From: Botryllus schlosseri | Lineage: Eukaryota | DNA: 64,000 bases | Direction: 5' to 3' | NCBI GenBank assembly: GCA_051294905.1 | Contig: CM119372.1 | Location: 29,018,001-29,082,000 of the forward strand | Part shown: positions 498 through 64,000 of the stretch, piece after piece | Layout of the letters: each line of letters opens with the position of its first letter | Numbering within the stretch: position 1 is the first letter of the stretch | Notes under the pieces: generated by a model | Database searches by the model: none | Told to the model about the DNA's origin: nothing | Seen by the model: the letters and a program-made list of their open reading frames with translations, nothing else | Translations under genes and position numbers: made by a program

Positions 498-613
498 CTA
501 CAAAGCAAATGAATGGGAGAATGCGCCCGCAATCGATGTCATTCCAACTGTTTTGTGGCCACTCTAAGGCGGCACAATCCTCCTTCCTATGATCATCCGG
601 CTGACCCGGTCCC
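498..613 (-). CDS. C-type lectin gene copy 1, coding exon 4 (QPD/WND sugar-binding site); gene continues beyond window start
   Basis: tttttgcag acceptor, GTAAGT donor, 116 nt, phase 2 to 1: GPGQPDDHRKEDCAALEWPQNSWNDIDCGRILPFICFV. No stop before the donor, so further exons follow. Confidence 0.93.
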
Positions 614-3380: not shown

Positions 3381-3479
3381 CAATTTGTATATTTAGAGAC
3401 GGGAGTGCCGTCATTCCAGACCCACTTGTTTTCATTTGCGAGATCAGTCATGCCGATTATGGGGCTCCAATAGTTATGT
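3381..3479 (-). CDS. C-type lectin gene copy 1, coding exon 3 (WIGL-equivalent / WxWxDG)
   Basis: ttttcag acceptor, GTGAGT donor, 99 nt, phase 2-2: HNYWSPIIGMTDLANENKWVWNDGTPVSKYTN-W (split codon). Confidence 0.92.
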
Positions 3480-5710: not shown

Positions 5711-5900
5711 GTGCCGAGACCGTCATACATCAGGTCACTAACTTCTCCTGTGATGACGCTGGTAGTTATGAACACTAAATTTAACCATCCCAAGTCTTTG
5801 CATCTCTGTGTTGCGCCTCCCCACATTTGGTCATTACCCGAATAGAATCCGTATATATTACCAGTTGTTTGACCTAGTGACCAGTAGACGTATTCATCCG
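5711..5900 (-). CDS. C-type lectin gene copy 1, coding exon 2 (N-terminal CTLD)
   Basis: ttttacag acceptor, GTAAGT donor, 190 nt, phase 1 to 2, open: DEYVYWSLGQTTGNIYGFYSGNDQMWGGATQRCKDLGWLNLVFITTSVITGEVSDLMYDGLG, matching the CTLD W-x2-A-x3-C-x3-G...LV-x-I pattern. Confidence 0.88.
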
Positions 5901-7622: not shown

Positions 7623-7674
7623 CTTGAGCCATGTTGGCTCCGAAGAGGAGAACTGCACTCAGTATCAATATCAT
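7623..7674 (-). CDS. C-type lectin gene copy 1, coding exon 1 (signal peptide)
   Basis: ATG at 7674; MILILSAVLLFGANMAQ+G is a hydrophobic signal peptide; donor GTATGT at 7622 (phase 1); upstream acceptor ttacag at 7696-7698. Joins in frame to the 5711-5900 exon (AQA/DEY cleavage-like site). Confidence 0.85.
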
Positions 7675-17438: not shown

Positions 17439-17705
17439 GATTCAATATGACAGGCCAAATCTATTAGATAACAATTGCGTAGGTCTCCGAACTCGTTGAA
17501 CTTTCCAGTTAGGCTTACGCAATCTCTCGAGTTGTAGTCATTGGAATTAGTCAGGTCAAGTCAAGTGCGAACATGAATCGTATTGAATCTTTGCTCCGTA
17601 CGTAGTTTACGCAGTTGCCTTTAGAGCGAAAATTAAAGATCTAGAAGTTGTCCAGTCCATTGATCTAATCGTAAGCCGGGTGCCTCCGCTTTTGTTACCT
17701 ATCAC

Positions 17706-37748: not shown

Positions 37749-40700
37749 GTATTTGGTATTTGGAGTATTTGGTTGTATTAAGAATTAATTAATAATTAAT
37801 TAATTACTTTAACTTAACCTAACTTCTGAACTGACGCATCACTGCTGTGAATGCCTGCGAAACGATCTGGATATATCGCACCTGGACGTACCCGCCGTGG
37901 GACCAAGCGGATGACCCCAGAGGACTCGTCAACTCCGACCACACAGGAACACCAAAGAGAAGATATTTCTCAACATGGCGCCTGTGCAACACCGAACTGT
38001 GGCTCACAAAACAGCTCTGCTGCAAAAGAAAAAAAGAAGAGACACAGATGGAGTAAAGAAGAGTATAAAGAAATAATGAGATGTTACTTCTTAGCTAAAT
38101 TTGAAAACTCGGCAGGAGTAACCGAAGGAACTTTTCAAAAATGGAGAGAGAGAACGAGCAACTCTCCATCCATGACTGCCAATACCCTGGCAACAATGAG
38201 ACGTTGTGTAATAAAAAATAAAAAATTATCTGAACAAGAACTCGCAGAAATCGAGGGAGAAATGTGTAACAAAAACATAGAAAACTCTGAGGCAATGGAA
38301 CTGCAATTCGGCCAAGATGACCTGAACCCACAACAATCACTTGATGACCCGAACATCGCAGAAGTAGAATTACAAAATACCACCGGGCACCCGAATGAAT
38401 CAACAACACCTAACGATGGCGACATAGACACGGAATTAGAATTGGAGATCAAAAATCAAATCATCGACCGCATGAAATCCACATTGAATGTAAATGACAG
38501 AGTGCAGTTACCTGACTTACAAATTACAAAGAAACTGAAAACTGATATTGCAGTAGCGAACAAAATTTTGACAGAAACCATACTACCTGCAACTCTAAAT
38601 GACAAAAAAGGAGAAAGACCACAATGTCCCTTGACAACAATCAACAACCTCATTTACAGCACTGCGGCAGTTATCTCAGAAAGGCACTGCAAAATACCAA
38701 GAACTGTCAACAAAAAAAGGGGAAGGTATACGCCAGCTTGGCAACGCAGAACTGAAAACAAAATCGCAAAACTAAGGTGTGACGTTGCGATACTCTCAGA
38801 ACTAAAAAAAGGAAATGTTTCCCGCAAAGTAAAAAATAAAGTAAAAAGAATAGAACTGGAGCACCAAACCAAACTGCAGTCAACAGAAAAAGTGACAATG
38901 TTGCAAGAAGAATTAAAAATGAGAATATGCGCCAAAGCACAACGATTGAAACGATATAAAAAACGAGAAACACAATATCGCCAAAATTTGTTATTTGTTC
39001 GCAAACCTGGACAATTTTTTCGAATGATGAAACAAAAGTCAAATCAAAAAATTACCAGCAGCAAAATACCAGCCATTGCAGATGTGGAATCATTTTGGAA
39101 GAAAATATGGGAAACCAAAAAATTGCACAACTCAAATGCAAATTGGATACAAGACCTCCACACTGACCATCTACAAACACCAGAACAACAATGGTCAGAA
39201 ATCACAAAACAAGAAATCAAGGAGGCCCTAAAGAGTTCACTGAACTGGAAAGCAGCTGGTCCTGACCAGATCAAAAACTTTTGTCTAAAAAAAAACTAAC
39301 TGCAACACATAATTACCTAGCGGTGACCTACAATGAGCTTTTATCCTCAACCAGCTCGCACGAGATCCCAGCCTGGTTCACACAAGGGATCACCTATCTT
39401 ATTCCAAAAAATGAAAACACCATGGACCCCAAGAACTACAGGCCAATAACATGCCTGACAACCATGTACAAAACACTGACCAAAATCCTGGCAAAACGAA
39501 GCTACAAACACCTAGAAAATCTTCTACCGCCTGAGCAGAAAGGATGCAAGGAAGGCGCCCTTGGCTGTAAGGACCACCTGCTCCTTGACAAAACCATTCT
39601 TGAAAACTGCAAGAGGAGACACACTAACCTCAGCATGGCATGGATAGATTACAAAAAAGCTTTCGATTCAGTCCCTCACACGTGGATACTGAAAACAATG
39701 CGTATGTACAAAATGAATCCGATCATCATCAGATTTATTGAAAATTCAATGAAAAATTGGCATACAAAACTGTTGATCAAACATGACCAAGGTGAAACAG
39801 AAACCTGTTCAATTCAGATATGCAATGGTATTTTCCAAGGCGACTCATTCTCACCACTTCTATTCTGCCTCAGCTTAGCTCCACTCAGTGAGTTGCTGAG
39901 AAAAAATGAAACAGGATACGTGATGAAAAAAGCAGCAAATTCTGAAGGTCAAAAGATTCATCACCTTTTGTTCATGGATGATCTGAAACTGTATGCGAAA
40001 TCCGACACGGACCTGAATAACCAAATGAAAATTGTTCATGAGTTTTCGGAAGATATAAAAATGAAATTTGGCTTGGATAAATGCTCAAAACTTACCATAC
40101 GACGCGGAAGAGCCACCAGCACTGGCGACATGAACTTCAAAATGGACGAAACCATAACAGAATTGAATGCCGAAGATCACTATAAATATCTAGGGATCTG
40201 TGAAAGCGACAACATTAAACATGCTGCAATGAAATCAAGTCTAAAAAAAGAATACATCAGCAGGCTCAAGTCAATTCTCAAAACTGAACTCAATTCCAAA
40301 AACAAAATCAATGCCATAAACAGTCTTGCAGTGCCTGTCTTGAGATATAGCTTTGGTGTGGTGAACTGGCGTAAAGATGAAATTAAAAAATTGGACACAA
40401 AGACGAGAAAACTGATGACAATGCACCACATGCATCACCCAAAATCTGATACACAAAGACTGTACATCCCCAGAAAAAAGGGTGGTCGAGGACTACAAGA
40501 AATTGAACAAACCTTCAAAACAGAAATCATCGGCTTGTCACAGTACATCAACAACAGCGATAACATTTACTGCAAACTCATTGCACAGGAAGACAAACAG
40601 CGCAAAACAAAATCTCTGAGCTATCGTCACGACAAGTACGCCAGAGAAGTCAACTTGGAAACAGCTAACCTGTACACTGCAGAAAACACTGTTGCTAAAC

Positions 40701-41809
40701 CCACAACAATAGCAAAAGCAGCACGAGTCCGATGCAAAAATGCAACGCTGAAAATGAGAGAAACGATATGGGAGTCGATGCCTCTTCATGGACAGCACAA
40801 GAAGTTAACTTCACAGCCCCATGTAGACGAGCTTTCATGGACCTGGCTATCCAGCTCTGGCCTGAAACCGGCAAGCGAAGGATTCATTTTCGCAGCACAA
40901 GACCAATCGCTTCCTACAAAATACTATCGCAAAAGAATTCTGAAGCAAAACACGGACGGCAAATGCAGAATGTGCCACAACCAAAATGAAACTGTAGCAC
41001 ATCTCATGTCCGGCTGTGGTGCACTTGCAGCTACCGAATACACATGGAGACACAATAGGATTGGTCACTACATTCATCTTGAATTATGCAAACATTTTAA
41101 CATCACCACTTCGACAAAAAATTGGTACGATTACAGCCCAGCACCAGTGACAGAAAACGAACAAGTAAAAATTCTGTGGGATGTACCAGTTATAACTGAC
41201 CGCGAAATCAGGAGCAACCGCCCGGATATAATCGTCAAACTAAAAAAGAAAAGAGAATGCTTATTCATTGAACTGGCTGTCCCAGCTGATCACAACCTAC
41301 TGCAAAAAGAATCAGAAAAATACTCCAAATACGCAGATCTCAAAATGGAATGTGAGAAAATGTGGCGATGCAAAATAAACATTGTACCGATAGTCATTGG
41401 TGCTACAGGGGTCGTGAGCAAAAAACTCATGAGACATATCCAACAAATTCTAGGTAACGTTCGATTCGACATGATCCAAAAGATCACATTATTGGGCACT
41501 GTGCACATTCTTCGGAAGGCCTTGAATGCACCACTGGACTAAAATTACGCTTGTGAATCACAGCATAATTTCTGTAATTTCGATTCTTCATCTTCAATCA
41601 TCTCTACCTCTGCTCTGCAACCCTTGCCAATTCTTCATCTGCTGCAATTCTGTAATCTGACTTCTCCGTGTATTGCATTGTATTGTATAACAATTTGAAT
41701 GTATTACTGAAATTTTAAAAATTTACTCCAATCTCGCCATTTTCCTTTGGGGGCAGGTTGCTCCCCGGATTATGTGTGTATCTACCAGTTTTACTGTGAA
41801 TAAAGAATA
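37749..41809 (+). mobile_element. Near-full-length R4/Dong-clade non-LTR retrotransposon (RLE type)
   Basis: Flanked on both sides by TAA repeats; single long ORF with RT and a C-terminal restriction-like endonuclease. Confidence 0.92.
37851..41542 (+). CDS. R4/Dong polyprotein (~1230 aa; one frameshift in the A9 run at 39287-39295)
   Basis: WKAAGPD, YRPITCL, WIDYKKAFDS, GIFQGDSFSP, LFMDD, YKYLG; CRMC...HLMSGC, RHN, RPD, IELAVP, EKYSKY (RLE). Confidence 0.92.
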
Positions 41810-42388: not shown

Positions 42389-45300
42389 CAGGGGCGGGCA
42401 ACATACGGCCCGCGGACAGTTTGCCGTCTTACATGATAATTTGGCCCGCGGCCGCGGTTTGCCGAGATTCCGCACTACTTGCTTTACGATACTTTGGAAC
42501 AGGAATATCTAGACTAGTCTAGATATCCCTGCTTTGGAAATTCAAAAAGAGGATTTTAAAACTTGCAAAACCGGAGGAATATCCTGAAAAAATGGTAAAT
42601 TTTTCACACGTCGTGGTCAGTTGACTAAAAAAAAGGTCAAGTTTCTCACTCAGCGCCCAAAATACAGTTTTTCTTTCACATTATCAGGTGGTTGACTATA
42701 TAAAAAGGGTCAACTTTCTCGTTCAGCGCCCAAAATACAGTTTTTCTTTCAAGTTATCAGGCGGTTGACTAAAAAAAGGTCAACTTTCCGGCCCAGCTGC
42801 CGAAATAGTCGCCGGGGCGTTACTACAGTGCTGACTTATTGTGTATCAGTCGAATTTGGCCCTATATCTAACCAAAATTCCCAAAAAAGAGGACAAAATC
42901 TCAAAAAAGAATACATTTGGAGGTCCTCTGAGGACACTTTCAGAAAAGTTAAAAAAGAGAACAAATCCTCTTAAAAGAGGGCGTATGGTAACCCTACCTA
43001 AACGTCAGATTTTAGTGACTGTATGTTATTACATACGTGTGTGCGTGCACACTGCGCAGCGTGAGAGAGTAGAGCGAGAAGGCTTGCATTATCGGCATTT
43101 ACCATGCACTCAACCCAGATGAATTGATATATTCGTAAATTTGGGGTACCGGGTTTATCGAACGCCTGGAAATCTAAATTATGGATTGCACCGTGTATTA
43201 ATTCAGTGCTCTTCAACCTTTTTCGACGTGGTACACCCTTTAAACTCGTACACCCCTGTTCATATAAAACACCGAAGTCGGTAATGGGCCTAGTTATTAT
43301 AGCAAGCTATAGGAACTGCTAAATACTAATTAGTGCTCGAGATTGCCGTACTATCTAATATATCGATAAAACGTAACGACACATGTCTGTTCTGTCACTG
43401 TTGTACGTGTTTTTTTACCTAAATTGTCTAGGCTGCGCTATCAATTCGCGAGTTCGAGATCTACGGTAATACGAAACGTATTCACTATTCGCCAATGCCC
43501 TGACCGGGGCATTAGCGGTTCTCAATCACTCCATTTCGCGAACAAATAAGTACACCACCTCCGCGATGGCGGATCATTTTCACGAATCAAAATTTCTGTT
43601 TGGCAATTCTCGCTACTTCAGATGATTCAGATATTTCCCATCTTTTGATATCTCGACCCTTGACACACCTATTCTGATCTCTATGTTTAAGTAATAGCTC
43701 AAATCAAGTATGGTATTCAGAGTCTATTCGGAGCCAGTTAGGCCGCCCGCCACGCAAATTGGAATTTATTTCGTGTCAGCCCCACAACAGCATGACATTA
43801 CGAACATTAATCAACCTAAATGTAACAGTATTGGGGAAAGAGTAGGTAAAGCAACCTGCTGCAGAAGCGGTAATTCAGACCAGCGATGATAGCAGGCGTA
43901 CCAGCCTACTGCGTGTCAGGCCTGCCCCACACACAGTCGATAGTAGCACACGGGATGCAAGAGATGTCAGTAACCTCAGATCGTATGCCGTTTTACACAG
44001 TCGATTGTCGCTAATTTGCATCACTAATAACAAAATACTAACTTGCAAATGTATGGCGAAATATTGGACGTAAAATCGGCATTTCAAAACAATAGGGTTT
44101 CGATTTTAACATGGCTGTTTCGCCCCTGGCTGGCTACGTCACTTCATTGATGTGCATTGCGGTATTTATTACCGTCGGGTAGGAAGTACCGATTCAAGAA
44201 GTCTGAGCTATCGCGGCGGTTTCCCAAGAATCACTAAAAGACAAATCGCTAGCTGAACACATGTTTGTTAACTGCATCCTTTCCAACACCAACGAAACCA
44301 TTGGTCCACTGCCGACGGCTAAATGAATAGGAGAAATATTTGCTTATGACATCACAATCTAGCGGTGTACTGTATTACACTCGAGATAAACATTGTACCA
44401 TATTGCTCATTAAACTGTGCGTCAACCTGTACTGACGCATAAACCTGCATTTGTGATAGCTAGCCATCGGCTCATTGTAATTCGGATCTGGTACACCCCT
44501 ATACACCCCATCCGAGTGGTACACCCTTTGCAAATTCTGGTACACCCTAGGGCAGGGGCGGGCAACATACGGCCCACGGGCCGGATCCGGCCTGCGAAGG
44601 GATTTTGTCCGGCCCGCCGAGAGTTTTTACTCTGAAATTTCGTTGTGAATGCATTGAAAAATTTTATGCGTCACAGAATGAATCCAAGATTGCGAACCTG
44701 AGTAAGATGGACATTAAACTACTTGCTCGGTTCGGGTCTACTTACATTTTCTACCATGAACCAGTGTTGGGATGACTCGAGTCATCTTTTTCGTATGACT
44801 TGACTTGACTCGAGTCACCTTCGAAAAATGACCTGACTTGACTCGACACTTCAGAAATGTAGATTGACTCATGACTCGAAGCAAAATTTACTAGTCAATT
44901 TAAAGTCATCAAGTAATTGATGACGACTAAATCGCTGTATCTTGTATAAGTTCGCCAAACCTCAATTGTTATACCACAAATAAATTGATCGCAAACGCAA
45001 TGATTGGAGCTTATACAACAGATGACGTTGTCGTAAACTCGCTCACCTCAACTAGCCCTCTTGTATATAATTTAAATCAAACGAATATCGGTCATAGATT
45101 TATGATTGTATATCCTTGATAAGTAGGTGGGTAGGGTATTGAACTATATCATTTTTAAACTTTCTGAGGTTTCGTCTGCTATCCTGTATTTTGGCTGATA
45201 TTTAAAGACTGAGGCTACACCGCTATACTTGCGTAGTTGAGCAGTTCTGCGTATGCGTGAGCGATACAGCGCCTTTTGCGAGTAAAATCAACTCTTCATT

Positions 45301-46405
45301 CCATTACTCCTCGCAATTTAGTCCGCGTAAGCGGTGTCTTACACAAAGCCTAGAAGTGGGCCGTGCTATAAGTCGGCAGTTGAGGAATAAATATGAAGAA
45401 TATTGGCCTGGTGTAAATGACCGTAGTAGTCGACAAACATCATGAATATCTCAAAACAAACAAAATGTATATTCGTTCATCGATTCCGAATAAATGGGTA
45501 CTTCATCTGTATTTAAAACAGCTAGCAAAATGTGATGACTTTGAATCATGTCTAGTACTTTGAAATTTCAACTTGGCTTGACTCGTGACTTGACTTGACT
45601 TGACTTGACTTGACTAGAGTGACCTACAAAACTCGAGTGACTTGACTTGACCCGAGTCACCTTTGAAAATCAGGTGACTTGACTTGACTTGACTCGAGTC
45701 GAAATGTGCAATGACTCGAGATGACTTGTGACTCGAAGGTAGTGACTTGATCCCAACACTGCCACGAACATTAACGAGGAAGGCCGTGTTCCAGTATAAC
45801 TGATATTCGCGTGCAGTTTTTAGTAAGGGTTCCGCATACAACATGCAACCAGAGTTCAAAAAACTAGTTGACAATATTGAACGACCACAGATCTCTGATT
45901 GACTTCAATAGCTGCTGTAAATAAATTCAATAAACACTGTTTTTAGACTCCATGCTTTAAACTTGAAGCTTACATTAAATACAATGGATTCCTTGTATAT
46001 GTGGATAAATACGCGATTGAGGTATAATGTATATATTCTGTAATCCGGCCCGCCAAGTGCTTCATTTTCCCTTATCCGGCCCGCCGACCGGAGAAGTTGC
46101 CCGCCCCTGCCCTAGGGTGTACGAAAACCCCAGTTGAAGAGCACTGTATTAATTGATCAGAGAGAAGCAGACATAGCGGCGGCTGTATGACAATGCTGCT
46201 CTCAAATCCAGATTGTCTTCGTCATTATCGGCGAGAAATGGCTTTGAAATGACATTGCCGTCGTTAAAATACATTCATTAAATACGATTTATTCCTTCTA
46301 TATGTGGATAAATGGACGAATAATGTATCGATTCAGCAATCCGGCCCGCCAAGTACTCAACTTTCCTATATCCGGCCCTCCGACTGGAGAAGATGTCCGC
46401 CTCTG
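42389..46405. mobile_element. Five-level nest of non-autonomous hAT elements plus a SINE
   Basis: 42389-46405 (TSD ATTTAGAG/GTTTAGAG) > 43204-46146 (TATTAATT) > 44553-46109 (CCCTAGGG) > 44762-45761 (CCATGAAC/CCACGAAC, GACTT repeats) > SINE A fragment ~45305-45465. Confidence 0.87.
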
Positions 46406-48699: not shown

Positions 48700-49014
48700 A
48701 ATAGCCGCCTCAAAGCAAAATCAGCGATAATATGTTTCCTCAAATTCAAGTTTTTGAACGTAGTCTTTTTCTATAGACAGAATGGATATAACTGATAGCC
48801 GATCATCATTCATGGTAGAACGTAAATAAGACTTAATCAGTTTGAGCTTTGAGAAGCTCCTCACACAGCTCGCAATTGAAACACCGATGGTCAGATAAAG
48901 TTTCAGACACGAGCATAAATATGGTATCGAATCAAGTAGCTTTGCATTAACTAACCGCTGTAAAACATCAAACGCTGTTGCACTACGATCAAACGTGGTT
49001 TCACTGCTCCGCAC
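48700..49014 (-). pseudogene. Decayed Tip100-type hAT transposase dimerisation domain
   Basis: LKLYLTIGVSIASCVRSFSKLKLIKSYLRSTMNDDRLSVISILSIE. Confidence 0.85.
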
Positions 49015-49354
49015 CAGTCTCTTAACCCTTTTAAAATCTCAAGTTGAACAACTTCATATATGATCATATCTTAATTTGTGTTCGTCCTAGAGGCCTCATA
49101 TTCGTTTGTACGAAAAGCTAGCAATCTTCTGATTTATATTGTCCCTAAGTCGGAGGTATGGCATGACAATTTTCGCAGTTAACTCCAAAAAGTCCACCTC
49201 GTCGTCATAAGTGCTTCTAAAAGCGCTGGTGAAGAAATTGTGACTTTCGCTTTGCAGCAGCGCGTGGGAATTGGAGGGAGTGGACAACTTTACCGGTGAA
49301 CTGATCACATGGGTTGAGAAAGGGTAAATATTTGATAGTAATATGTGATACTGC

Positions 49355-50221
49355 CAATGTTTGGATCAAGTCACTACCCTCGAGTCACGAGTCACTTCGA
49401 CTCATTGCACATTTTGACTCGAGTCAAGTCAAGTCACTCGATTTTTGGAAGTGACTCGAGTCAAGTCGAGTCAAGTCAAGTAGCCTTTTCGAAGTATGAG
49501 GCATGATTGCGCCATTGTATTTTGCTAGCTGTCTGAAATACAGATTAGGTGTTCATTGATTCTGAACGAATATAGACTTTAAAACACGCAAGAAGGCGCT
49601 GTATCGCTCGCAAATACGAAGAGCTGCTAAACTACTTGAGTAATTGCATAGCCTCAGTTTATAGTAACCAGCTAAAATAGAGAATAGAGAAAAGAATTTA
49701 TAAGATGCAATACTTTACCCAGTTACAAATTGATATGATACAATCGGAGCCTGCGCCAATGGTTGAGGACTGTATAAACTATATTCGAACTCAATTTCAA
49801 TAAAACAAAGAGATCTGGTTAAGGTATGAGCAGAGAAAATAAATAGACATTTTGCTAATAAATTACTTTACTATACTAGTTTACGACAACGTAAGCTGTA
49901 AGCTTCGATCACTCCGTTTGCGGTCTATTTACTTGTGAGAGAACTATGGAGGCTCAGTATAACGCACGATCATTGATGATTGGTCGCTCTCACGGGTAAC
50001 TCCAGCGTTTCACCAACAATCCGGCCACATGCAAAATACAGTAGTTTTTATCGACACCGATTACTTGATGACTTGAAATTGACTCGTGAATTTTGCTCAC
50101 GAGTCACGAGTCAATCCACATTTCTGATACTTCGAGTCAAGTCAAGTCAAGTCATTTTAGCAAAGTGACTCTAGTCAAGTCAAGTCATACGAAAAGGGTT
50201 ACTCGAGTTATCCCAACACTG
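49355..50221. mobile_element. hAT-type MITE with (AGTCA)n subterminal repeats
   Basis: Reverse-orientation relative of 44762-45761; TSD GATACTGC/CATACTGC. Confidence 0.82.
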
Positions 50222-52802
50222 CATACTGCTACTATTAATTACGGTATTCATTCATGGATCTGAAAAATTTTATCGCTCCGCACCACAATATGCAATTTCA
50301 GCAACTATTCATAACATTGGCACTCGCGATTTCGGTGCGTACAATAGGCCGCTGTGTAAAATAGAATGGTCCGGAGTTCACCGGGAATGGATATGGACAG
50401 ATTAACATAGGTAGGCTATTTTGCGTCCAGTTAGTTCATTACGGCTATGCCCTGGAATAAGACCTTAGGCTACATAAGCAATTGAAATGCGGCCGTGATT
50501 AGCAAAAAGTTGCCCATCACTATATTAGATGATGTGCTCTTTTTGACATGGCGATAAGTGCAGGGGGTGGTCAGGGGGGCGCAAATTTTTTGACCATCGC
50601 TAAGGGGGCGCATGTCCAAAAAGGTTGAGAACCGAAGTTTTAGAACAATGCACATGAATCGTGGCCCTTGCCCATAGGCACCGCGTGACACAGCTAAGTG
50701 TCCAGAACATGAGTTTTTAATCCTTCATCCTTTAGCACCCTCTTCAGAATCTTTCATGGTCTTGTGCTCTCATATATTGTGGATTTCACGAAATGCGATT
50801 GGATAGAAGTCGTTGCCTGGTCGGACTTTTCGAATTCGTACCTGACTATTGAAAGTATTCATATCTTTTCGGGCTCGGAATGAACTAACGTTGGAAATAC
50901 CATGCATGCACGGAAATCAATGGGTACCCACTTTTAAAATGTTCGACAACCCTGCCATAAGCTTGCCTTATCTTTTCTGTGACTACCGATCTAAGCCAAC
51001 CTAAATTCGTACCTAAACTAACCCCCTTAAACTAAAATACCATAAAAATTAACCCAACCCTAAACCACCCCTCCATTATCAAACTAATTCACAATGCCCG
51101 TGTGCCGAACGATCGGTAATAAAAGTTACATTCTCCAATTTACACCCTCCTGCATTTTACAACAATATTAAAAAATGGCTAACGAGTCCATGCATGTCGA
51201 TTTATTCCTAGAGAATTATTCATTAGGAAGATGCGCCTTTGATTAAAGATCATTAATTCTCAATAAAATTTTGAATTGCAGGTAAAGCTGAGAAGTCCGA
51301 TATCTGATTTGGTTCGTCACGGCGACATGGCGTCTTTTATTGCTTCGGGATGAACTAAAAAGGATTGAAAAGACGGTTATGGGTGAAGAATATGAACACT
51401 GGATATCTACTAAACGTCGATTCGATGGAGCGATGATATTTTCAATTGAAATAAAAGAAATGAATTATTGCCTTCGTGTTTCATCGACATTGTGGTGGGG
51501 TGGAGAAAGAGACTCTTTCGACCTCTGCTGTTTGTGGGCTTTACACGGCGGATCACTGCTCAATGATTCGCAAGATGATTTTATTCCGGATCACCTTCAT
51601 GCTGCAAACCGAACATCGTCCAACCCGGCTTGGGTCCGGCACTGTTTTGCTCGCCACCGGCAAGTATGCAGAGAAGACAGCCATTGAGGTGTAACTACTA
51701 AGGTCGCTCTTGCTATTCTTTAGTCGAATTGCATTTTGGTTCTCGGGTAACGAGTATGGATAATATGATACATCTGAATATTTGACCTATTGGACTCATC
51801 TGACCGACCGGTAAGCTCCGTAGCTAGTTTTAGTCACGCCGAAATCATCCCATAAATCGCTCATAGGACTCTTAACCCGCCATCACTAAGATCTTGACCG
51901 AACAAACATGTGAGCCATTTTCAATGAAAAGTCGGATTTTTCCTGCCAGAGATGTAATCCGACCTTGTGTTATTCACTGTCAATCGGCATCATCCAAAAT
52001 AGCTGATTGGCGCTAACATCTCGTCGGCATCAGCAATATATTGCACATGATTAGAATTTCGAATGAGAGACGGCAGGACTTGTTCTTTTTATTCGTGTTT
52101 CGATCTCCTCGATTTCGTCTATTTATGACTCCTGTGGCGATTTTATACCATGTGAATTCAGCGCGGCGTGAACGGCTTCAGATCTCTTCTACTCTCTGCA
52201 CTGGGTCACTGCCATTCTAGGTGTGCTACTAATTTACGTCGTCCGATGAAACTTATTTTAGTTTTTTCTATCAAATGTGATATGGATATGGCGTCCATAT
52301 AAAGTTCATATAGAGTTTAGCCTTCACCAATCGACATTTCTAGGCATTTGGTCGCTCACCATACTGCAGATCAAGACATATTTGCGGAAGTATAGAATCT
52401 TCCGCTTATAACTCTAACTATTAGCACTTCTATATCGCGTTTGCATGTCGCGCCTCGTCATCTTGGCAACATGAATACAAATCTAGGTAGGTCATCTGTA
52501 AGCATTGAAAATATCAGGAATAAAGATACACGCACATGAGCGGCCAGGAAGTTAGACCAAATGCGTCGGATACACAGCGTCATTGAAGGATATGCCCACG
52601 TATCTGTAGGTTTTATTGCTAAACAGAGATTGTGGTAGTGTGACACAGACGAGTCTTGAATTTTACCATTTCGTGACGTCATTTTGAAAGGTCGCAATTG
52701 AATTGTGTTGTCGCCATTATTGCCCAACCTCGGTATATACTCCTGGGACGATCGCGAATTTAAATTTGAAAATACATTATACTGATTCCAAGACTTATTT
52801 GC

Positions 52803-52906
52803 TTATAGCGGACTCGGATTCTTGGTTATTGCGAGACTGTACCCTGATTTGCATTTATTCATGGCATTTACACCTATTTTAAATTTTCTTGCGACCTTGA
52901 CATGAA
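52803..52906 (-). CDS. Candidate terminal exon of lectin-Ig copy 2
   Basis: ccttgtag acceptor, phase-1 frame (V)HVKVARKFKIGVNAMNKCKSGYSLAITKNPSPL-stop; AATAAA about 190 nt downstream. A second acceptor (tgcttacag near 52497, DDLPRFVFMLPR-stop) is equally possible. Confidence 0.3.
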
Positions 52907-53186
52907 CTACAAGGCGGTAAGATTTGGAGTTGGATGTTATGGCTATATATTTCGAAATGAAGCCGAGATTGAGGTTTGATAATGCATTCTAATCTCAAAA
53001 TTGGCAGAGGATATGAGCTAAGACGGTGATTAGGAATAAATGATTGAATGGACTGTGATTGCGGATGTAACCGTACAGGTTCGTGTTCACAAATGAATTA
53101 TAAGATAAGTTCCAAGTGTACACAGACGTATATTTCATGTGTTATTTTACCATTCAATATTTGCCGAAATATACTAATAGATTTAC

Positions 53187-53474
53187 CTGTTATGTTAATA
53201 GAGGTGACATATCCTCTCGACGGGCTGAAAATGTCATTGGCGGCGGAACATTTATACTTTGCAGAGTCTTCCAGGGTGGCGCTTTTGATGATTAGTGTTG
53301 CCTTTCCTGGTTCAATTTTTTGAAGAGGTTCATTCCAAATATTGTCCGTGGGTACGCCGTCCTGTCTCTGCCATTTGACGTTGACAGTCGAAACTCCAGA
53401 TCCAGCACATTCGATCTCAATCGTATTTCCAACTGTGTAATCCTCTCTACTGTTCGACAGAACGAGAGGGAAAA
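53187..53474 (-). CDS. Immunoglobulin (I-set/C2-like) domain exon of lectin gene copy 2
   Basis: ttccacgcag acceptor, GTAAAT donor, 288 nt, phase 1-1, open: FPLVLSNSREDYTVGNTIEIECAGSGVSTVNVKWQRQDGVPTDNIWNEPLQKIEPGKATLIIKSATLEDSAKYKCSAANDIFSPSRGYVTSINIT. Has B-strand Cys, C-strand Trp, E-strand Leu and DxAxYxCxAxN. Confidence 0.9.
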
Positions 53475-53700
53475 CTGCGTGGAATTGAGAACAATATGTT
53501 AAGAAGCGTCATAAAGCCAAGTAGGTATATGTGATTGACCGAGAGAAACCATCGATACTGGTAATCGGCGTGTTTATCACAGAACTTCCAAATTTTCAAA
53601 ACCAGACCTGTTACCTAGTTGAAGTATTCAGATAGATTTTGTCGTCATGACACACTTGCTTACTAACGAAGCCTGCATATCTCTTCAACATACTCTAGAG

Positions 53701-54007
53701 CAGTGGTTCCCAACCTTTTTTTAGACACGCCCCCCTTTATGATAGTGAAAAATTTCGCGCCCCCTTATCGTCATATCACAAAATCCAACCTGTATGCTAG
53801 CAACCTCAACAGATTGGTTGATGGCATGGACGGTTATGACTGTTGATGAGAGAATTAAAAAAATGGAAATTCGGTCTATATAGAGAAACACGCGTGAATT
53901 GGAGGTAAAATTTTTCAGTTGACCGCTTCTTCGCGCCCCCTTCAGATGCTTTCACGCGCGCCCCCTTGGGGACTTGGGGGGCACGCGCCCCAGGTTGGGA
54001 ACCACTT
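53701..54007. mobile_element. hAT MITE in the lectin-Ig intron
   Basis: TIR CAGTGGTTCCCAACC, TSD CTCTAGAG; same family as 12424-12735; a truncated Buster-derived element starts immediately after at 54023. Confidence 0.85.
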
Positions 54008-54749
54008 CTCTAGAGTCTAGACCAGTGGTTATCAACCTGTTTGTCTTCGCACACCTCCTTTGGACCGTCACGGAACCCCGCGGACCCTCCAAATTTAACC
54101 ATGTTACCGTGCAACCGTCATATGTCATGTGCAAATATTGACCGTAGGCTAGTGATAAAGAGCAATAAAATGACATTTCTTGAAATTAACATCATACTAT
54201 AGTAGTAGTAGTATAATATATTTTCGTAGAAATTGGGCATACGTTTATTATTTCAATGCGAGTTCTGTAGCAGCAATTCTTGAATTACACTGCAATGTCT
54301 CGAAAATCCGCGCCGTCGGAATGACTTGAACGAGTGCGAAAAATCGATTAATTTCCACAAATATAGGTGATGGTGAAGGTAATAATAACGCGTAACGCTT
54401 CAGATGACACTTTTGGATCTGATAACAGCATGCATGGGACAAATACAACGTCCAGCCCAGTCATTTCTATGTAACAGCTCAATTATTCTGGAATAGCGGT
54501 TATGTATATCACAGAAGATTATGAATATTTTTGCAAGCGAATTTATTCCGAAACCCCAACAAAACATCTCTAAACAGCAATATGTTTGTATCAGTAAGCT
54601 ATTGACATTTAGGCGATAACAATAAGTTTGCACAGTAGACAATTTCATCTCAGAGACGATCATTCTGTTTACGCAATTCCTTGAGTTTCAGTAGTTATGA
54701 AGTGAAACTACTTCGTGATTTCTCTCACGAAAGAAATTTGTTTATGGCA

Positions 54750-57176
54750 GGAGAGATATGGTACCGATGGATCACTGGGACCGAAATTACTTGAAACATT
54801 ATCCATGATAATTTCATGATTACACTCCATGAATTTATCTGCAATTGCATGTTGGCAGAATCTTCCCTCGCATACAAAAAATTTCCACGTGCGCGAGTTA
54901 TTGGGTCTCTGACAGATGTTTTCTGTTTTTGGGGTGTAAAATAAATTTGGATCCACATGTACATTTTTCTTTGTAACCTTGAACACGAACAAACCAACAG
55001 TCATTTTTAATGTGATGTATAGGGCTTGTGTCAGGCTATATAATGGCACATATTGTTTTACTCAATAACTTCCTTGAGTGGAATTTTTTTCGATTCATTC
55101 ACAAAATTCATAGGTTGGGAACCGATGATACAATAGCCAAAATCAAACAAAATAGATGCCCTAGCTCAGTGGTTCTCAACCTTTTTGGCTTCGCGGACCC
55201 CTTTTGACCGTCACGGACCCTCGCGGACCCCCTCAAGTTTTAGTTCAATTTCATCGCTTTTATGGTGCAACCTTCATGTCTTGTGCAAATATGAACTGTA
55301 GGCTTGTGATAAACAGCAAAATAATGATTTTTCTTGAAAATAACATCATACTATTTATGTAGAAATTGGTAGACTTTTACTATTTCAAAGCTAATTTTGC
55401 AGCTGTGTTTCTTGAAGTACGTGGTCTAATCCTGACAATCCACGTCTTCGTTTTGATATGAACGAGGAGTGCCAAAAACCATTTCCGCTAAGCTAGATGG
55501 AGGCTAATGCAATGTTAACGCATAACGCATCCGACGATACTTTTGGTGTGATCGCAACATTTATAGCACCAAAATGAAAAAACATCTATTTTATGAACAT
55601 ATCATGTCCAGCATCTAGCGTAGGGACGGGCAACATACGGACCACGGGCCGGATTCGGCCCGTGATGGCATTTTGATCGGCCCGCAGAGAGTTTCTATCG
55701 TCAAAGTGAAATCCTAATCTAAAAGTATATCGACAAATTTTATGCGCCAAAGAATGGATCGAAGTTTTCCAACCTAAGAAACACTATCATGAAACCACTT
55801 GTTCTGTTCGGGTTTACATATAAATTTACGAGCAAACATTTTCGACCATCAACAATTGAACATTAACAAGACAAGGCTGCATACCAATATAACTGGTGAT
55901 ATGAATTTCAGAGTTTGAGCTTAATACTTTGATAGCAGCGAAACACTCCTTTTTCATCAAAAAACTAGCCTTGTCGATAGGGCATCCGCAATAAGAATGC
56001 GCCAAATATGATAGCCGAGCTTTAAGAGCAGGTATATCATTGTCCGATTTATGACGAGTGTAAGCCAAAAATTTTGGGTTCATTTCAATATGAATATACT
56101 ATTCAATTGTATATTGAAGTTCTGTACCTCCAAGAAGCTGTTCAAATACTAGTTATGTATATCACAGGATAAAGTGGATTAGTGGCGAGGTTTCAATCAC
56201 TGCATTGGGACAATTTAGGGAAATACTTCGGAAATTTTTATTTCAAACGACTGTACGTACACTAATTTGATGAGACTGACAACTTCAAGTCGAGAAGGTT
56301 TCGCAGACATTACGAAGTCACCTTGATTGACGTTACTATCTCCATATTTTTATTTTTTCCACAAACCCCAACACAACGTTCTTAAACAGCAATATGTTTG
56401 TATCAGCAGGTTAATGGAAAATTAGCAATGAAAATGAATTTCCACACTATACGATAGTTCATGTCAGACGATTATTCTGATGATATGAGTCATGAGGTTT
56501 TAGCAGTTGTGGTGCGAAACTGCCTCATACTTTCTCAAATTAAAAAAATAAAATAAAAATTAGATTTTCAACCATTTTAAAAATTTAGAGGTCTCGCGGA
56601 CCCCCTGAAATTGCTTCGCGGACACCCGGTTGAGAACCGCTGCACTAGCTAATCATTCAACTACTGAAAGTTGCCTACATACAGTACCTCTTTATGTAAT
56701 AATTGCCTCCGATGTTTTATCGCTATAACGAGGTGTCTGTAAGACAAAATGTCGATGAACGAGCAGTACGTGTGTACCCTCTAATTTATAAGTTGGCGCA
56801 TAAATCGAAACGTGATTTTATGGCAACATTTGAGTTAATGTTATTTCTATTTTTTGACGATTGCGACCATACATTCTTCTGCTGTAGCTCATATTATATT
56901 ACACAGCAAGAAAATATGTTACATCTGAGTTTTCGAGAATATGTCTCACAGGTCCCCGGTCGTGTGCCTTTGGACCCACCGGGTGGGGACCGATGATGCG
57001 TTCGAGCAACAAATTTAAAACGTTCATAAATGTTTTTTGATATTCATGTATATATGCGCGATAAGAAAAGCTTGTATCAAAGTTTTGAGCCAGCAAAAGA
57101 TTTGCTGTTTTCGGCTGAATATTTTTGGGCCAGAGGTCATTTTCCAATTTTTGATCCGTCGGTACCACATCTTCCC
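54750..57176. mobile_element. TA-target MITE interrupted by a Buster-derived hAT element (55167-56642)
   Basis: Colinear with 59222-60182 once 55167-56642 (TSD CCCTAGCT/CACTAGCT) is removed. Confidence 0.85.
55895..56075 (-). pseudogene. Penelope-like element fragment (region just upstream of the RT DKG motif)
   Basis: LKARLSYLAHSYCGCPIDKASFLMKKECFAAIKVLSSNSEIHIT, truncated where KPDKG would be expected. Confidence 0.6.
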
Positions 57177-58231
57177 TACATTTGGGTGATTTCCATACAT
57201 TTCCACTATTTCCACTACCGATACATTCGATAATCCTGATTGGGGGTCAAGAAATAACAGCACGCAACAAAGCGACTAATAACAATTAGCCCACCCGAAG
57301 ATGCATCATCATCTATAACTTTCCCTAAATCTTCGAAAGCACTCCCTCCATAAACTCTACCGGTTAATCTGATCACATGGGGGCGCATGTCCAAAAAGTT
57401 GAGAACCTCTGGATTAGAGTGAAAATGGGCATAAATGACGCTTAATAGGAAATTCTTGGTTCGAATGAAAGTGACGACTTTTTTGAAGTCAACCAACGTA
57501 AAGTGTGAAAGTAAAACTGTATTTCTGGAGTTGTGCCGGAAAGTTGACCTCTTTTTAGTCAACTGACCACGAAGTGGGAAAAATTTCCCATTTTGTCAGG
57601 ATTTTGCTCCGGTATTCTAAGTTTGAAAATTTTGAAAAAGTATCCTCCTTTCCCGATTCCAAAATATGGTAACCCTACCTTGTGATTTTGATTTGAATAT
57701 GATTAGTAAGAGAAAAAATGCACGTATTTAGAGAGATAAACATATCGGCGCCGGTGATTACCAACGCATCGAACAATAGTAGGATACGAGATGGGCCACA
57801 GAACATTTTCAAACCGAGAAATGGGCAAAAAGAGGTTGAGAACACCTGAACTAGATTCGCAGGTAAGGTATCGTCGGGCATATTCATTCATTTGCTTTGT
57901 TTTCTTCTATTTCCAGTATCTATGTTTTTATGAAACCGGAGAACCTACACTTTATGTTACAAATTATCATGCCTACATGTAAAAAAAGTAGTTCAATGCA
58001 TCATTATTTACAATAAAGTCTATCAAATCCAGTTGCTATGTCGAGAGATTTTGGGACTCATGTGGATTTTCTCTACTATTGCAAATTATTCAAAGAGGTT
58101 AGTTTTCGGGCTTCTTCCACGTCTACTGCTTCATGCTCATTTTTCACGCTCTAGGTTTGCTGAGTAGGAAGTATTATAGCTTACTGCGTCATTTCCAGCA
58201 AATCGATCCTCCTCGAGCGAATATAATTTAC

Positions 58232-58347
58232 CTTGAAAGCAAATGAAGGGGAGAACATTCCCGCAATCGATATCATTCCACATGTCGAATGGCCACTCTA
58301 AGGCGGCACAATCTTCCTTTCTATGGTCATCCGGCTGACCCGCTCCC
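58232..58347 (-). CDS. C-type lectin gene copy 2, QPD/WND exon
   Basis: ttttgcag acceptor, GTAAAT donor, 116 nt, same phases as 498-613: GAGQPDDHRKEDCAALEWPFDMWNDIDCGNVLPFICFQ; 98/116 nt identical by manual alignment; flanking introns also alignable. Confidence 0.92.
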
Positions 58348-58484
58348 CTGCAAAATGGAACATCGCAAACGATTTTGTTGCTCCATTTTTGTAGGATTTG
58401 AGAATATGGGTACATTAACTAAAATGGGACTTTTGCGACGCCACAGGGATGGGACCATGTTATCGAAAACAATACATATTACCA

Positions 58485-58735
58485 CTAACGCAGCGGTATG
58501 TTGTACAGCTGCAACACCCATGGTTAGCGAACTCGAGTACGACCGTGTTGGACTCCAGAACTCCTACCTCAGTGTTGGAGGTTTACCTATAGGCTCCTGC
58601 TCGCTCGGTGGTCTGCGCAATCGGTTTCTTACAAACGCCCAGTACGAACGTAGACCGTGTTATAAGTCGGCAGATCAGGAATTATAATAAGAAATATCAG
58701 CCTAGTGTGAATGACCATGAATACCGAAAACAACC
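58485..58735 (+). mobile_element. SINE family A, degenerate copy
   Basis: GACTCCAGAACTCCTACC...GTTGGAGGTTTA...CCGTGTTATAAGTCGGCAG...CAGCCTAGTGTGAATGACCAT. Confidence 0.7.
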
Positions 58736-59221
58736 ACTTCAAAAGGTGATTCGAGAAAATACAACATGTTTTGCCATAGGCGTATGCCATCACAATGTAT
58801 CACGGGCTTGATTTGCACGCAGCGGCTTGGGGAATTCCTCGCTTTTCGTTTTCGCTGTCTGCTAACTTCTCATTACAAAATTGCCAAGTAAGACTTCAGA
58901 TTTCAATACCACACTGCCTACGTTTTTCGTTGCGATATGTATCCAAACCAAAATAACACTACCAGCCGGTATTTTAAGAATCCACATCACGCCAGTGATA
59001 TGTAATCATAAGAGCTAGTGTAGATTCACCTCATATAGCCCTTAACTGATATGGGAGTTTTGAGGCAGGAAATGAGAAAGACTTTATTTGTAGAGAGGTA
59101 TATGATGAAAACACGATCAATCCACGTTTTTTGTTTACAATATGGATTCGGAGCAAATTCCTACAATCTCATGCACAGTATTGACCATGCACTCAGGTCG
59201 ATCTATAGAGCCTGAGTAGTA

Positions 59222-60182
59222 GGGGAGATGTGGTACCGATGGATCACTGGGACCGAAAATACTTTGAAAATTCTCGATGATAATTCCATGATTACACTCC
59301 GTGAACTTGTCTACGATTGCATGCTGGCAAAATCTTTCCTCACATACAAAAAAAATCGACGTGCGCGAGCAATGGGGTCTCTCACATATGATTTTTGTTT
59401 TAAGGGGTGTAAACTAAATTTAGATCGACATATACATTTTTCTTTGTAACCTTCGACACGAACAAACCAGCAATCATTTTTATTGTGAAGTGTAGGGCTT
59501 GTATCAGGCTATATAATGGCACCTATTATTTTTTTCAGTACTTTCCTTGAGTGGACTTTTTTACGATTCATGTATAAAATTCGTAGGGTGGGGACCGATG
59601 ATACAATAGCCAAATCAAGCAAAATAATCAAGCATACTAATCATGAAACAAATGAAACATGTCTACGTACAGAAAATCTTTATGTAATAATTGCATATGA
59701 TGTTTTATCGCTATAACGAGGTATTTGGAAGTCACACTGTCGATTTTCGGACAATATGTATGTACACTCAAATTTATAAGCTCGAGCCTAAATCGAAACC
59801 TGATTTTATGACAACATTTGAGTTAATATTTATTCTATTTTTAGACAGTTGCGACCAAACATTCTTCTTCGACTTGCTGTAGCTTAGATTATAATACTGA
59901 GCAAGAAAAGTAGTCACATTTGAGTTTTTTAGGGTATATGTGTCATAGGTCCCGGGTAGTGTGTCATTGGACCCACCGGGTGGGGACCGATGACACGTTC
60001 GAGCGACAAATTTTGAACGCCCATCAATATTTTTTGAAAAGACGGATATTCATGTATATGTGCGCGATAGGTAGAGCTTGTATCAAAGTGCTGAGACAGC
60101 AAAAGACCTGCTGTTTTCGTCTGAACATTTCAGGGCCAGCGATCATTTTCCGATTTTTGATCCATCGGTACCACATCTCCCC
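59222..60182. mobile_element. Intact 961-bp MITE with TA TSD (Tc1/mariner-pogo-like)
   Basis: 25-bp perfect TIR GGGGAGATGTGGTACCGATGGATCA, TA on both sides. Confidence 0.9.
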
Positions 60183-60232
60183 TATAGTAGATCGGTCGTG
60201 AGGTGGTCTTTTTTTGCATGGGCTCTTATGGG

Positions 60233-61030
60233 CCCGCTGGTGACTCGTATTGAAAACTCGTGTTGGTGACTCGTACTTTCAGATCCCCCTTCCGCTGGTG
60301 ACTCGTACTTTCAGACCCCCCTTCCGCTGGTGACTCGTACTTTCAGACCCCCCTCTCGCTCGTGATTCGTAATGTGTTCTTATGGGTGTGTTGGTGATTC
60401 GTACTTTCGGGTATAGGCTGCGGCGATGACTCGTATTGAAAACTCGTGTTGGTGACTCGTACTTTCGGGTATAGGCTGCGTCGGTGACTCGTATTGAAAA
60501 CTCGTGTTGGTGACTCGTACTTTTTTACTATAGGTGGTGACGGTGATTCACCTGCCGTGTATTCTTACGGGATATGTGGTGACCCGCCATGTGTTCTTAT
60601 GGGTGCGGTCGCATGCGGCTATTGCGTCTTATGGCGGGGGTGGCGAGCGGCTATTGCGTCTTATGGGTGCGGTCGCATGCGGCTATTGTGTCTTATGGGT
60701 GCGGTCGTGAATCGTACTTTCGGGTATATGCATCTCTCGCACGGTGTTGAATATGTATCAAGTTGGTAAATAGTCACGTGATTGGTCCTAAGTTAATGTG
60801 TATATCGCAAATTATTAAATATGACCGAATCCAGGTAATCCTAACGTTTACGGTGAGTACGACAATGATATATCGTTATTCTTATGGACGCGGCGGTGAT
60901 TCGTACTTTCCCGTATAGGCTGTGGTGGTGACTCGCCATGTGTTCTTATGGATGCGTCGGCATATCGTACTTTCGGGTATAGGAATCTCTCACACGGTGT
61001 TGAATATGTATCAAGTAAATAGTCACGAGT
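60233..61030 (+). repeat. Complex tandem repeat array with core GGTGA(C/T)TCGTA
   Basis: More than ten copies of the core in 25-57-bp higher-order units, three GGCTATTG(C/T)GTCTTATGG units, and a ~65-bp direct repeat (~60711 and ~60965). Confidence 0.9.
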
Positions 61031-64000
61031 ATCACTAAACAGGAAATTCACTAAACCGCAGTGCATTGTGCGATTTTGAAAACAGATGTTTGCGCTTGCG
61101 TTTTGATATGTCTGACCTACTAAATACGTCCGTTTTGCGAACACGGTTTGTTGTGAGGATTACGCAGCGCGTGCGGCCTACATTTCGAATGACCTGTGTG
61201 CTGAATTGTTTCCCGTCCAACCGTGTGCTACTATCGATTATTACGCTAGTCCAGTCAGTGCGAAATAGTTTGCTAAATCTAAGAATCAGTCGCATGGTGT
61301 TACTTTAGTAATTAGTTTACCATAGAGCCGGCGTAGCCGGTGATTCGAATACCGACAAATTTTCACTTATTTCTGACCCAACCCTAATCCTCTGTGAAGT
61401 TGACGCTTATTCAAAAAGGTGTGAAATAATTGTAAAATCCTAATCCGAAACCGATTATTTCGACTTTGGCGTAGTGCGCATTGAAATAGGATTGACAAAC
61501 ATGACTACCAACTTCCCCCACAGTCCCGTTTCGATATTATACACACATTGATTTGAAACAAGTAATGTAACATTACAACTCTATTACCGATCCAGCTTTC
61601 CGTTTGTCAAAGAGACATTTTAACATCTTACCATACTCAAAAGAATTATTCACAACATTAACAAGTGTTTAAAATCTACTTTTCACTTACTTGGCTATAT
61701 CACTACAACTCGCAAACTTGAATTAATTCATCCTTGTGGTATTCGTATGACAGATAATTTTTATTCAACTGTAAAAGTCGTTACTAATCTATAACACAAA
61801 GTAATCACTACTCGGGAAATCTAGTTTTCACTTACTTGATTATATCACTACAACTCATAAATTTGAATTAATTCATCCTGGTTGTACTCGTATGATCGGT
61901 CTTTTTTTATTCGATTGTAATGGTCGTTACTATTCTGAAGACAAAGTATTTACTAATCGGTGCATATACGATTTGACTTGAACATATTATATTTTGAGTA
62001 TACGAGATTTGAATGTCTGAACAATAACTGAGAAATAATTTATCACAATTATATCCGTATATTACAGCGTAAAAGATATTTGAATGTCAGCAACTCGGTA
62101 AGGTCATAGTTACTACCACATTACCTAATTTTCCCGACCAACTCGTCATGATCATTCCCGAAATCAACACAAACATGACTACTGACTTGAGTTAACCACA
62201 AAACAGCATCAAGTTTTAAATCTACTTGTAGCTTACGGCTTATTCGAATGCGGGTTATGTTTTGTTGTAATTGAGTGTACGGAAATAGTATTACGTCTCG
62301 ACATCTCACCACCTTACCATATTCAAAGAGTCAACCACGAAAACATTGTCAAGTAAATCCGTTTGTAACTTACCCGACCAACTCAAACAGTATCAGTATG
62401 AAAAACAGCCAAACATACACGAATCCATACAATCACTAAAACCTAAAATCCATAACAAGCTTGGTTGTATTCATATCCCTACACATCTTTTTTATTCAAC
62501 TTGAAAAGTCGTTACTATTCTGTAAGATAGAGGAATTACTACGCGGTATATTTTGCAAGACAAACTAATTACTACTCGGTATATTTTGTAAGACAAAAGT
62601 AATTACTTCTCAGTGTCGGCGACTTGAGATTAACATAATATGTTTGAGTATACGAGATTTGAAAGTCCGACCAACGTAGTTGAGAATTCATTTCTTACAA
62701 TCGAACGATGGTGTTATATTCAAAGTTATCATGCTGTGAACATAAGGATTGACACATTGATTTGACATATGAGATTTTGTAATAGTTGATCATTACTTTA
62801 TTATTAAATTATTTGCGTTAATTAGACCCGGCGTTGTGTTAAATGTTATGACAACAACAAACTTTTCAGTACCAATGTTATTAACATATTAAGCTGTAAA
62901 ACTATGTGTGTCTGAAATGTTCTTGATAGGAAAATTACTCCACCTTGGTAAAAATCACTCTGCGTATCGCGGATATCAGAAAATATTTCCAGTAACCAAG
63001 ACTAAAGATGCAACGGCAATATCGGTATTATTACATTCAACAATCAGTACAATTATTAAAATCTATCGTTTGCGATAAACAGCACTAAAGATGTAATAAT
63101 TCCAGTATTCATACATTGAACATCCGATACAAAATGCTTTATTATCCCGATTCCTAACGGGTAATTGAAACGACTAAGTGTAGAATCAGTATATCACAAT
63201 ATCGTTACTATTGAATCCGACGATTTATTGTCGGAATTTGTGACAGAGAATTGAAACATATGCACTTTACAGAGTGAGAAAATATCACTTTGAGCATCGA
63301 GTACCGTTCGAAGCTAGCGATCAATTCTTAATCATTTCAGTAACTCCCCATTGTGCGTGCTAAATGTAAAATATCGCGAGGTTATACACTCTAAGACTTT
63401 GATTATTGCAAAAGTAAATTGTGATATGTTTGTTAGATGCATCCAATTCAACTAGAAATGTCTAGTGCCCAACACTCGTAATATCGAAAAAGTACTTGCT
63501 ACATTGTTATTTGCTAAACGTGTTTTGCATTGTTGTTCATTTCTAGTATTGATTGAAATCGTTCTTGAACCCTCAAATAATAATTCCCGACATGAAACCA
63601 AGCCGCTGAAAGTCGTTACCATGACGAAGAAACAATGTGTACGATGTTTATCAAATGTGTCCTACCTGGCCAACAGAAAACAATTTTCACTCACTCGAAA
63701 TGAAACCAATGGGATGGTCTCCATTCGATATTTTGTTTGTGTCAAATACTTTGCAATGAACACATTTGCGTGGTTGAGCTTTACATCATCAAGCTGTTAT
63801 TTGTAAATCAAGATTTCGGTAAACTTATAAATGTATCATTTAACTAACCGACATTTAGTGATTGGGGAACATACCAAACGATACACATCCATCTCCGAAA
63901 TACTGCATTGATCTTAATTTCCATCATCGTGATAATCGAAGTACATTTCTTTCGAATTCGTAACAACCGGTGTTTCTACGACACGATAAATTTTTGACAA

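Follow-up and report, generated by a model that had tools for sequence, protein, structure and literature searches.

The DNA considered here is a 64,000-nucleotide stretch of the genome of Botryllus schlosseri, an ascidian that forms colonies (assembly GCA_051294905.1, contig CM119372.1, forward-strand positions 29,018,001 to 29,082,000), which is referred to below as the window and within which all positions are counted. Two exons on the minus strand, one encoding the end of a C-type lectin-like domain (CTLD) and the other an immunoglobulin (Ig) domain, lie where an earlier, sequence-only reading of this DNA had placed them; together they are termed copy A. A second C-type lectin gene, paralogue B, which that reading had not seen, occupies the same strand at the opposite end of the window. 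On the evidence of exon anatomy and frame, copy A is probably a CTLD-Ig gene of a rare published design, with at least one paralogue in tandem with it. Coordinates of the features are collected in Table 1.

The last CTLD exon of copy A is bounded by the acceptor TTTTGCAG and the donor AAG/GTAAAT (the slash marks the exon border). Comparison with the Pfam profile Lectin_C (PF00059) gave a score of 28 bits (E 4e-6), above the curated cut-off of 22.6 bits. The four core Cys residues of a CTLD can be followed in copy A only as far as this last exon, the one CTLD exon that it shows within the window. The residues of Ca2+-site 2 (Q, D, E, N and D, from QPD, the downstream Glu, WND and the next Asp, with ligand numbering taken from MBP-A) are present in both A and B. 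The best sequence matches in the PDB were aggrecan (1tdq), the scavenger receptor C-type lectin (2ox8), tetranectin (1tn3) and Endo180 (5ao5). These matches were weak (E 1e-5 to 0.1); QPD, E-x-C and W-x-D/N align in these vertebrate QPD domains, the domain contexts of which differ from that at the locus. The ESM Atlas returned only weak CTLD leads, under the recognition threshold.

The Ig exon is bounded by the acceptor CCACGCAG and the donor CAG/GTAAAT. It matched Ig_3 at 43.9 bits (E 3e-11) and I-set at 39.8 bits (E 5e-10), the latter above the I-set cut-off, while the V-set score of 21.8 bits fell under the cut-off of that profile. The hallmark residues Cys22, Trp34 and Cys75 are present, the last within D-x-A-x-Y-x-C. 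Given the B-strand Cys, the C-strand Trp, the D-x-G/A-x-Y-x-C motif and the higher score for I-set than for V-set, the exon encodes an I-set (intermediate) Ig domain. The ESM Atlas (generic I-set/Ig_3 clusters) and the PDB concur in a generic I-set domain, and the closest solved structures are I-set domains of cell-adhesion or structural proteins (DSCAM, titin and contactin). A phmmer search of 1.84 billion representatives recovered generic multi-Ig proteins at 25-41% identity. An AlphaFold single-sequence model of the exon was all-beta with a pLDDT of 55, too poor for a fold search. The HMMER matches to Lectin_C and to Ig_3 and I-set, together with the splice signals and phases found in the DNA, bear out both exons as the sequence-only reading had described them.

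The two exons can be joined in matching phases, with no stop across the 134 codons so formed. In 20 Markov-resampled 64-kb strands, two phase 1-1 candidates of 250-330 nt were obtained in total and neither carried an Ig pattern, so the anatomy of the CTLD and Ig exons is not a product of chance. Just two weak candidate exons, of phases other than 1-1, lie between them. No convincing signal-peptide-like first exon was found inside the intervening intron (four candidates were seen on the whole minus strand, none of them in the intron), which argues against a separate start for the Ig exon.

Donor strength was expressed as the percentile among GT sites of the strand, on a generic weight table. 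All six donors of the A and B exons fell between the 98.9th and the 99.9th percentile. The CTLD donors of A and B, located at one shared codon two residues past the last Cys, stood at the 99.0th and 99.9th percentiles, and the CTLD and Ig donors of copy A are both within the top 1% of GT sites on the strand. At the level of DNA, a CTLD-to-Ig join is supported as the simplest reading, as had been claimed: the exon phases match, no Ig exon but this one was found in 64 kb, no rival 1-1 exon intervenes and the donor is conserved in B. The splice from 58232 to 53474 is a prediction and, provided that copy A is active, very likely to be correct. A search of sequencing runs for 52400-53500 listed no RNA run containing it; 11 of the 24 rows listed matched 5-9% of 118 words and count as no evidence.

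Paralogue B consists of four exons spanning 7674-498 and encodes a signal peptide and a whole CTLD. When joined, the exons give 152 codons without a stop and the four Cys residues of a complete CTLD. Exon 1 ranked best among the four signal-peptide-like candidates on the minus strand. Exon 4 scored 26.8 bits with Lectin_C, above the cut-off given earlier, and shares 31 of 37 residues with the copy A exon. In the comparison of the last exons of A and B (58232-58347 and 498-613), five of seven amino acid differences fall in two clusters close to the sugar site, one immediately preceding WND and the other immediately following the next Cys. Given that B has a signal-peptide exon and that both copies carry a strong phase-1 donor, a secreted family is suggested in which the CTLD continues into a further exon. 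Paralogue B thus supports a secreted lectin of this kind, the CTLD of each copy seemingly running on into another exon. At 7695 on the minus strand, 21 nt upstream of the B ATG, there is also a good acceptor-like site (pyrimidine-rich, TTACAG), which may belong to an intron of the 5' untranslated region or, given that the organism is an ascidian, be a spliced-leader acceptor.

Table 1. Features of the CTLD-Ig locus and of its paralogue, by position in the window
Feature	Position	Strand	Description
Copy A last CTLD exon	58232..58347	-	116 nt; phase 2 at entry, phase 1 at exit; QPD, E-D-C, WND and the final three CTLD Cys
Predicted intron	53475..58231	-	4,757 nt; GT-AG; rich in repeats; contains no candidate exon of phase 1-1
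Ig exon	53187..53474	-	288 nt; phase 1-1; I-set; 95 whole codons, no stop; sole Ig exon found in window
Intron stretch	58757..58897	-	70% identity to B intron 3 (2902-3029); matchless elsewhere in window
Intron stretch	59104..59207	-	homologous to 5' end of B intron 3; matchless elsewhere in window
MITE-like (miniature inverted-repeat transposable element) element	59220..60184		965 nt; ends perfectly inverted (27-nt match); each border with TA; at break of A/B homology
B exon 1	7623..7674	-	ATG; hydrophobic stretch resembling a signal peptide; donor in phase 1; upstream in-frame stop
B exon 2	5711..5900	-	phase 1-2; N-terminal CTLD part with first Cys, from frame and position (no Pfam match alone)
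B exon 3	3381..3479	-	phase 2-2; mid-CTLD; Lectin_C E 0.04, under cut-off
B exon 4	498..613	-	last CTLD exon; QPD and WND; phase-1 donor TAG/GTAAGT; any next exon off window

The order of CTLD then Ig has a precedent in the same species. BSCLT (Pancer et al. 1997) is described in the passages that treat it in PMC4944128 and PMC7916673 as a soluble protein in which the CTLD is N-terminal and an Ig domain of intermediate type is C-terminal, and is also cited in PMC5465252. The CREPs are given the reverse order, Ig first (PMC4944128, PMC7916673, PMC8878817). What the sequence-only reading had said of both agrees with the first two of these accounts. The product predicted from genomic order and frame would resemble BSCLT in its N-terminal CTLD, single C-terminal I-set Ig domain and putative solubility. 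The locus differs in that it has a paralogue in tandem and its exon structure is defined, with the junction and the protein ends predicted.

Other known proteins resemble the predicted product in part. PcLec3 of Procambarus clarkii, which serves as a functional model, is portrayed in PMC4944128 as a secreted protein of 252 residues with one Ig domain and one CTLD, but it is an arthropod protein, described with IG and CTLD in tandem. The gastropod CREPs and BgSel likewise hold Ig and CTLD within one protein, whereas their Ig domain comes first and they are reported as restricted to Heterobranchia (PMC4944128, PMC8878817). The TC14 lectins of Polyandrocarpa misakiensis would share with the product of the locus a tunicate origin, secretion, a Ca2+-dependent galactose-binding CTLD and several close paralogues; they differ in being of a single domain, without Ig, and in a loop 3 of W-A-P-G-E-P or W-S-P-D-E-P, as given in PMC3293724, in place of QPD. 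No TC14 entry was present among the 25 PDB matches of the last CTLD exon.

In the explanation that we prefer, two C-type lectin genes stand in tandem and copy A would be the 3' half of one of them. Its exons 1-3 (signal peptide and CTLD front, as in B) would lie beyond the window, displaced by the insertion of repeats. A phase-1 splice would join the last CTLD exon to the Ig exon, and a short unrecognised exon or read-through would supply the end of the protein. The predicted product is a secreted protein of ~250-300 residues, CTLD then one I-set Ig domain, with almost no linker, such that the last CTLD strand would nearly abut the first Ig strand. The ligands of the CTLD would be Ca2+ and probably terminal sugars of the galactose type, and that of the Ig domain a surface protein of host cells; the protein could in this way act as an opsonin, linking blood cells to microbes or glycosylated particles. 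An intact, secreted, opsonin-like CTLD-Ig protein from copy A is a tentative proposal, to which we give a little less than an even chance.

The role assigned to the protein is drawn from comparison. Ascidian humoral lectins are described as mostly opsonins (PMC5465252), and in the account of the crayfish protein PcLec3, an opsonin and the one functionally tested Ig and CTLD protein in the literature covered, the Ig domain binds hemocytes and sets cell binding, and phagocytosis is promoted solely by the full-length protein (PMC4944128). By analogy, we infer an opsonin role for the predicted protein. The same secreted CTLD-Ig protein might instead have a non-immune function as an extracellular-matrix, adhesion or growth-regulating lectin, after the manner of the TC14 lectins, which regulate growth in budding; two of these tunicate C-type lectins, TC14-1 and TC14-3, bind galactose and are reported to act on cell growth and differentiation (PMC3293724). 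The adhesion and structural proteins that head the solved matches of the Ig exon, and the V-set score under its cut-off, are in keeping with such a function. With the opsonin parallels set against it, a non-immune role is judged unlikely.

Several sets of observations weigh against the proposed CTLD-Ig protein, and one of them comes from the homologue searches. No relative of the CTLD-Ig architecture was retrieved, and BSCLT was not returned by searches with the Ig exon, the last exon of A or exon 2 of B, nor by phmmer. A CTLD-like match was found in none of the 150 multi-Ig proteins listed from phmmer. Among longer proteins, none of 55 candidate homologues of the Ig exon was significant, the last exon of copy A gave no candidate, and exon 2 of B gave three candidates, none of them significant; each of these is a weak negative. 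As such, they hint that the gene is a diverged or an independent one. A scan of metagenomes gave 213 pattern matches that reduced to one locus, a 22-residue chance match in a bacterial open reading frame (ORF), which was dropped; from its sequence we take this ORF to be gyrase-B-like. The literature covered, which was the text, supplements aside, of papers free of subscription and included PMC2248247, PMC10433773 and PMC514892, held no further tunicate CTLD-Ig genes and nothing more on contactin.

The sugar specificity forms a second point, since the QPD rule is unreliable in invertebrates. The pairing of QPD with WND suggests galactose-type binding. Binding of Gal/GalNAc, which the sequence-only reading had presented as established, is a prediction only: the motif rule is described as simplified in a review of lectins from bivalves, which nevertheless includes a QPD/WND lectin that binds GalNAc (PMC12842671). 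In MBP-A, the E185Q/N187D substitutions are reported to switch binding from mannose to galactose (PMC3293724). Given that QPD is found also in domains such as that of tetranectin, the motif alone is no proof of galactose binding. The high Gal/GalNAc selectivity of vertebrate receptors is due to an extra Trp and a Gly-rich loop, and these features are absent from the CTLD at this locus.

A further set of observations concerns the 5' side of copy A. Exons 1-3 were not found in 58348-64000, and exons 1-3 of B scored 23, 25 and 29 in 58400-64000 against shuffled maxima of 30, 36 and 40, respectively, with a score of 160 for a control exon. Homology between A and B, traced through the two intron stretches of Table 1, stops 35 nt short of the expected exon-3 donor and 13 nt before the MITE-like element, beyond which the DNA is unrelated and repeat-rich. 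The gene is thus incomplete as seen within the window. The 5' exons of A have either been displaced past 64000 by stacked insertions or been lost; that copy A retains an intact 5' end is likely.

Their loss would make copy A a 5'-truncated or recently inactivated duplicate, in which an ancestral CTLD-Ig join is unexpressed and B is the working gene. Consistent with this, exons 1-3 are missing from 5.6 kb of upstream DNA, though intron 3 of B is only 2.8 kb long, the break in homology falls at the MITE-like element beside the expected place of exon 3, and the 45 kb between A and B contains elements of the long interspersed nuclear element (LINE) and hAT types (from the Ig exon to B, two LINE-type elements and the remains of hAT transposases). 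Stacked insertions, however, account for the gap equally well, and copy A keeps its two exons and four splice sites intact. In simulations of neutral decay with assumed indel rates, such a state persisted in 0.15% of runs at 15% substitution, 2% at 10%, 10% at 5% and 45% at 2%. Since intact exons and splice sites rarely survive simulated decay, copy A would be active or only recently dead, and any loss must be recent. A truncated copy is accordingly given a small probability, similar to that of a non-immune role.

An ATG-to-donor segment of 52 nt at 62176-62125 was considered as a first exon of A and rejected, as its donor is weak (95.7th percentile), it has no likeness in DNA to exon 1 of B and no exons 2-3 lie below it. 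Upstream of the break in intron 3, 60234-61027 and 61672-62701 hold AT-rich clusters of tandem-like repeats of 26-58 nt and 145 nt. Partial copies of the MITE-like element, 80-85% identical, are also present inside the long intron of copy A.

The end of the CTLD exon also provides evidence unfavourable to the join. In both paralogues, the frame stays open past the CTLD donor, for 31 codons in A and 28 in B. The dN/dS ratio (nonsynonymous to synonymous substitution) between A and B was 0.34 for the exon, which is not significant (Fisher p 0.085), and 0.40 (p 0.17) for the first 21 read-through codons. As these values are similar, selection fails to separate exon from read-through. The CTLD exon might accordingly be terminal, with a tail of ~30 residues from read-through or a short last exon, in which case the lectin would have a single domain and the Ig exon would belong to another gene or be an orphan. 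The AATAAA located ~300 nt beyond the read-through stop of B would fit such an ending. By contrast, strong donors stand at the same codon in both copies, and identity between A and B drops from 98 of 116 columns in the CTLD exon to 109 of 158 downstream, where indels appear. Moreover, neither AATAAA nor ATTAAA was found within ~730 nt downstream of the copy A donor, and no host-gene exon other than the CTLD could be found for the Ig exon on the minus strand. A terminal CTLD exon is thus improbable.

The 3' side of copy A supplies the last of these difficulties, in that no exon after the Ig exon could be identified on the strand between the Ig donor and B. The Ig donor is of phase 1 and strong (99.4th percentile), and to this extent the term soluble, as used in the sequence-only reading, said more than the DNA allows; secretion is supported solely via the signal-peptide exon of B. 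Candidate phase-1 acceptors in the stretch from the Ig donor to B numbered 160, of which six exceeded a transmembrane-like hydropathy of 1.8; five of these are antisense to LINE-type ORFs and the sixth, at 25440, is without a supporting feature. No credible transmembrane or module exon was therefore found downstream of the Ig exon in the window, and 2,163 six-frame peptides of the window, compared with 150 multi-domain proteins, revealed no further Ig or other module. Extension of the protein to a membrane anchor or further modules, which would make it a cell-surface receptor and not a soluble opsonin, could draw on the strength of the Ig donor, on a phase-1 candidate at 52618 whose end is mildly hydrophobic (mean hydropathy 1.5 over 19 residues) and on a Drosophila CTLD protein described with several Ig and FN3 domains (PMC4944128), but against these negatives it has the slimmest chance of the alternatives considered. 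The predicted protein very probably has no membrane anchor.

Proteins composed only of CTLD and Ig are rare and little studied, and functional data come from the crayfish protein. The CTLD-then-Ig architecture was published in 1997, and the locus accordingly represents no new kind of system. With its intron-exon map and tandem paralogue, it would offer a tractable case of a glycan sensor joined to an Ig adaptor via symmetric phase-1 exon shuffling, and A and B are a natural variant pair for specificity assays. A bolder reading places the locus in a tandem family of CTLD-Ig recognition proteins that is specific to its lineage, arose by phase-1 exon shuffling independently of BSCLT and is possibly membrane-anchored. 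The paralogues would then keep their Ca2+ ligands and vary the flanks of WND, forming a small germ-line repertoire of glycan sensors with an Ig adaptor in an invertebrate chordate. We regard this as a long shot, about as doubtful as a terminal CTLD exon.

Mobile elements and repeats account for several other features of the window. A nearly intact retroelement without long terminal repeats occupies 37851-41542 on the plus strand, with a 482-residue ORF followed by a 758-residue ORF in a different frame; the latter matches RVT_1 and zf-RVT and has a weak endonuclease-like match at its C-terminus. Another element of the LINE type lies at 34802-37655 on the same strand, its RVT_1 and RNase H matches spread across three frames. 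An hAT-type transposase (DUF4371 and Dimer_Tnp_hAT) is encoded in two overlapping frames at 19177-21317 (plus strand), and a second hAT fragment at 48721-49038 (minus strand). Adjoining the hAT ORFs is a local duplication, in which 14931-16349 and 17437-19084 are 77-89% identical. Finally, a repeat family built of ACTTG/GACTC units, with inverted copies, was observed at 45571-45689, 44762-44947, 49352-49580 and 50029-50221.

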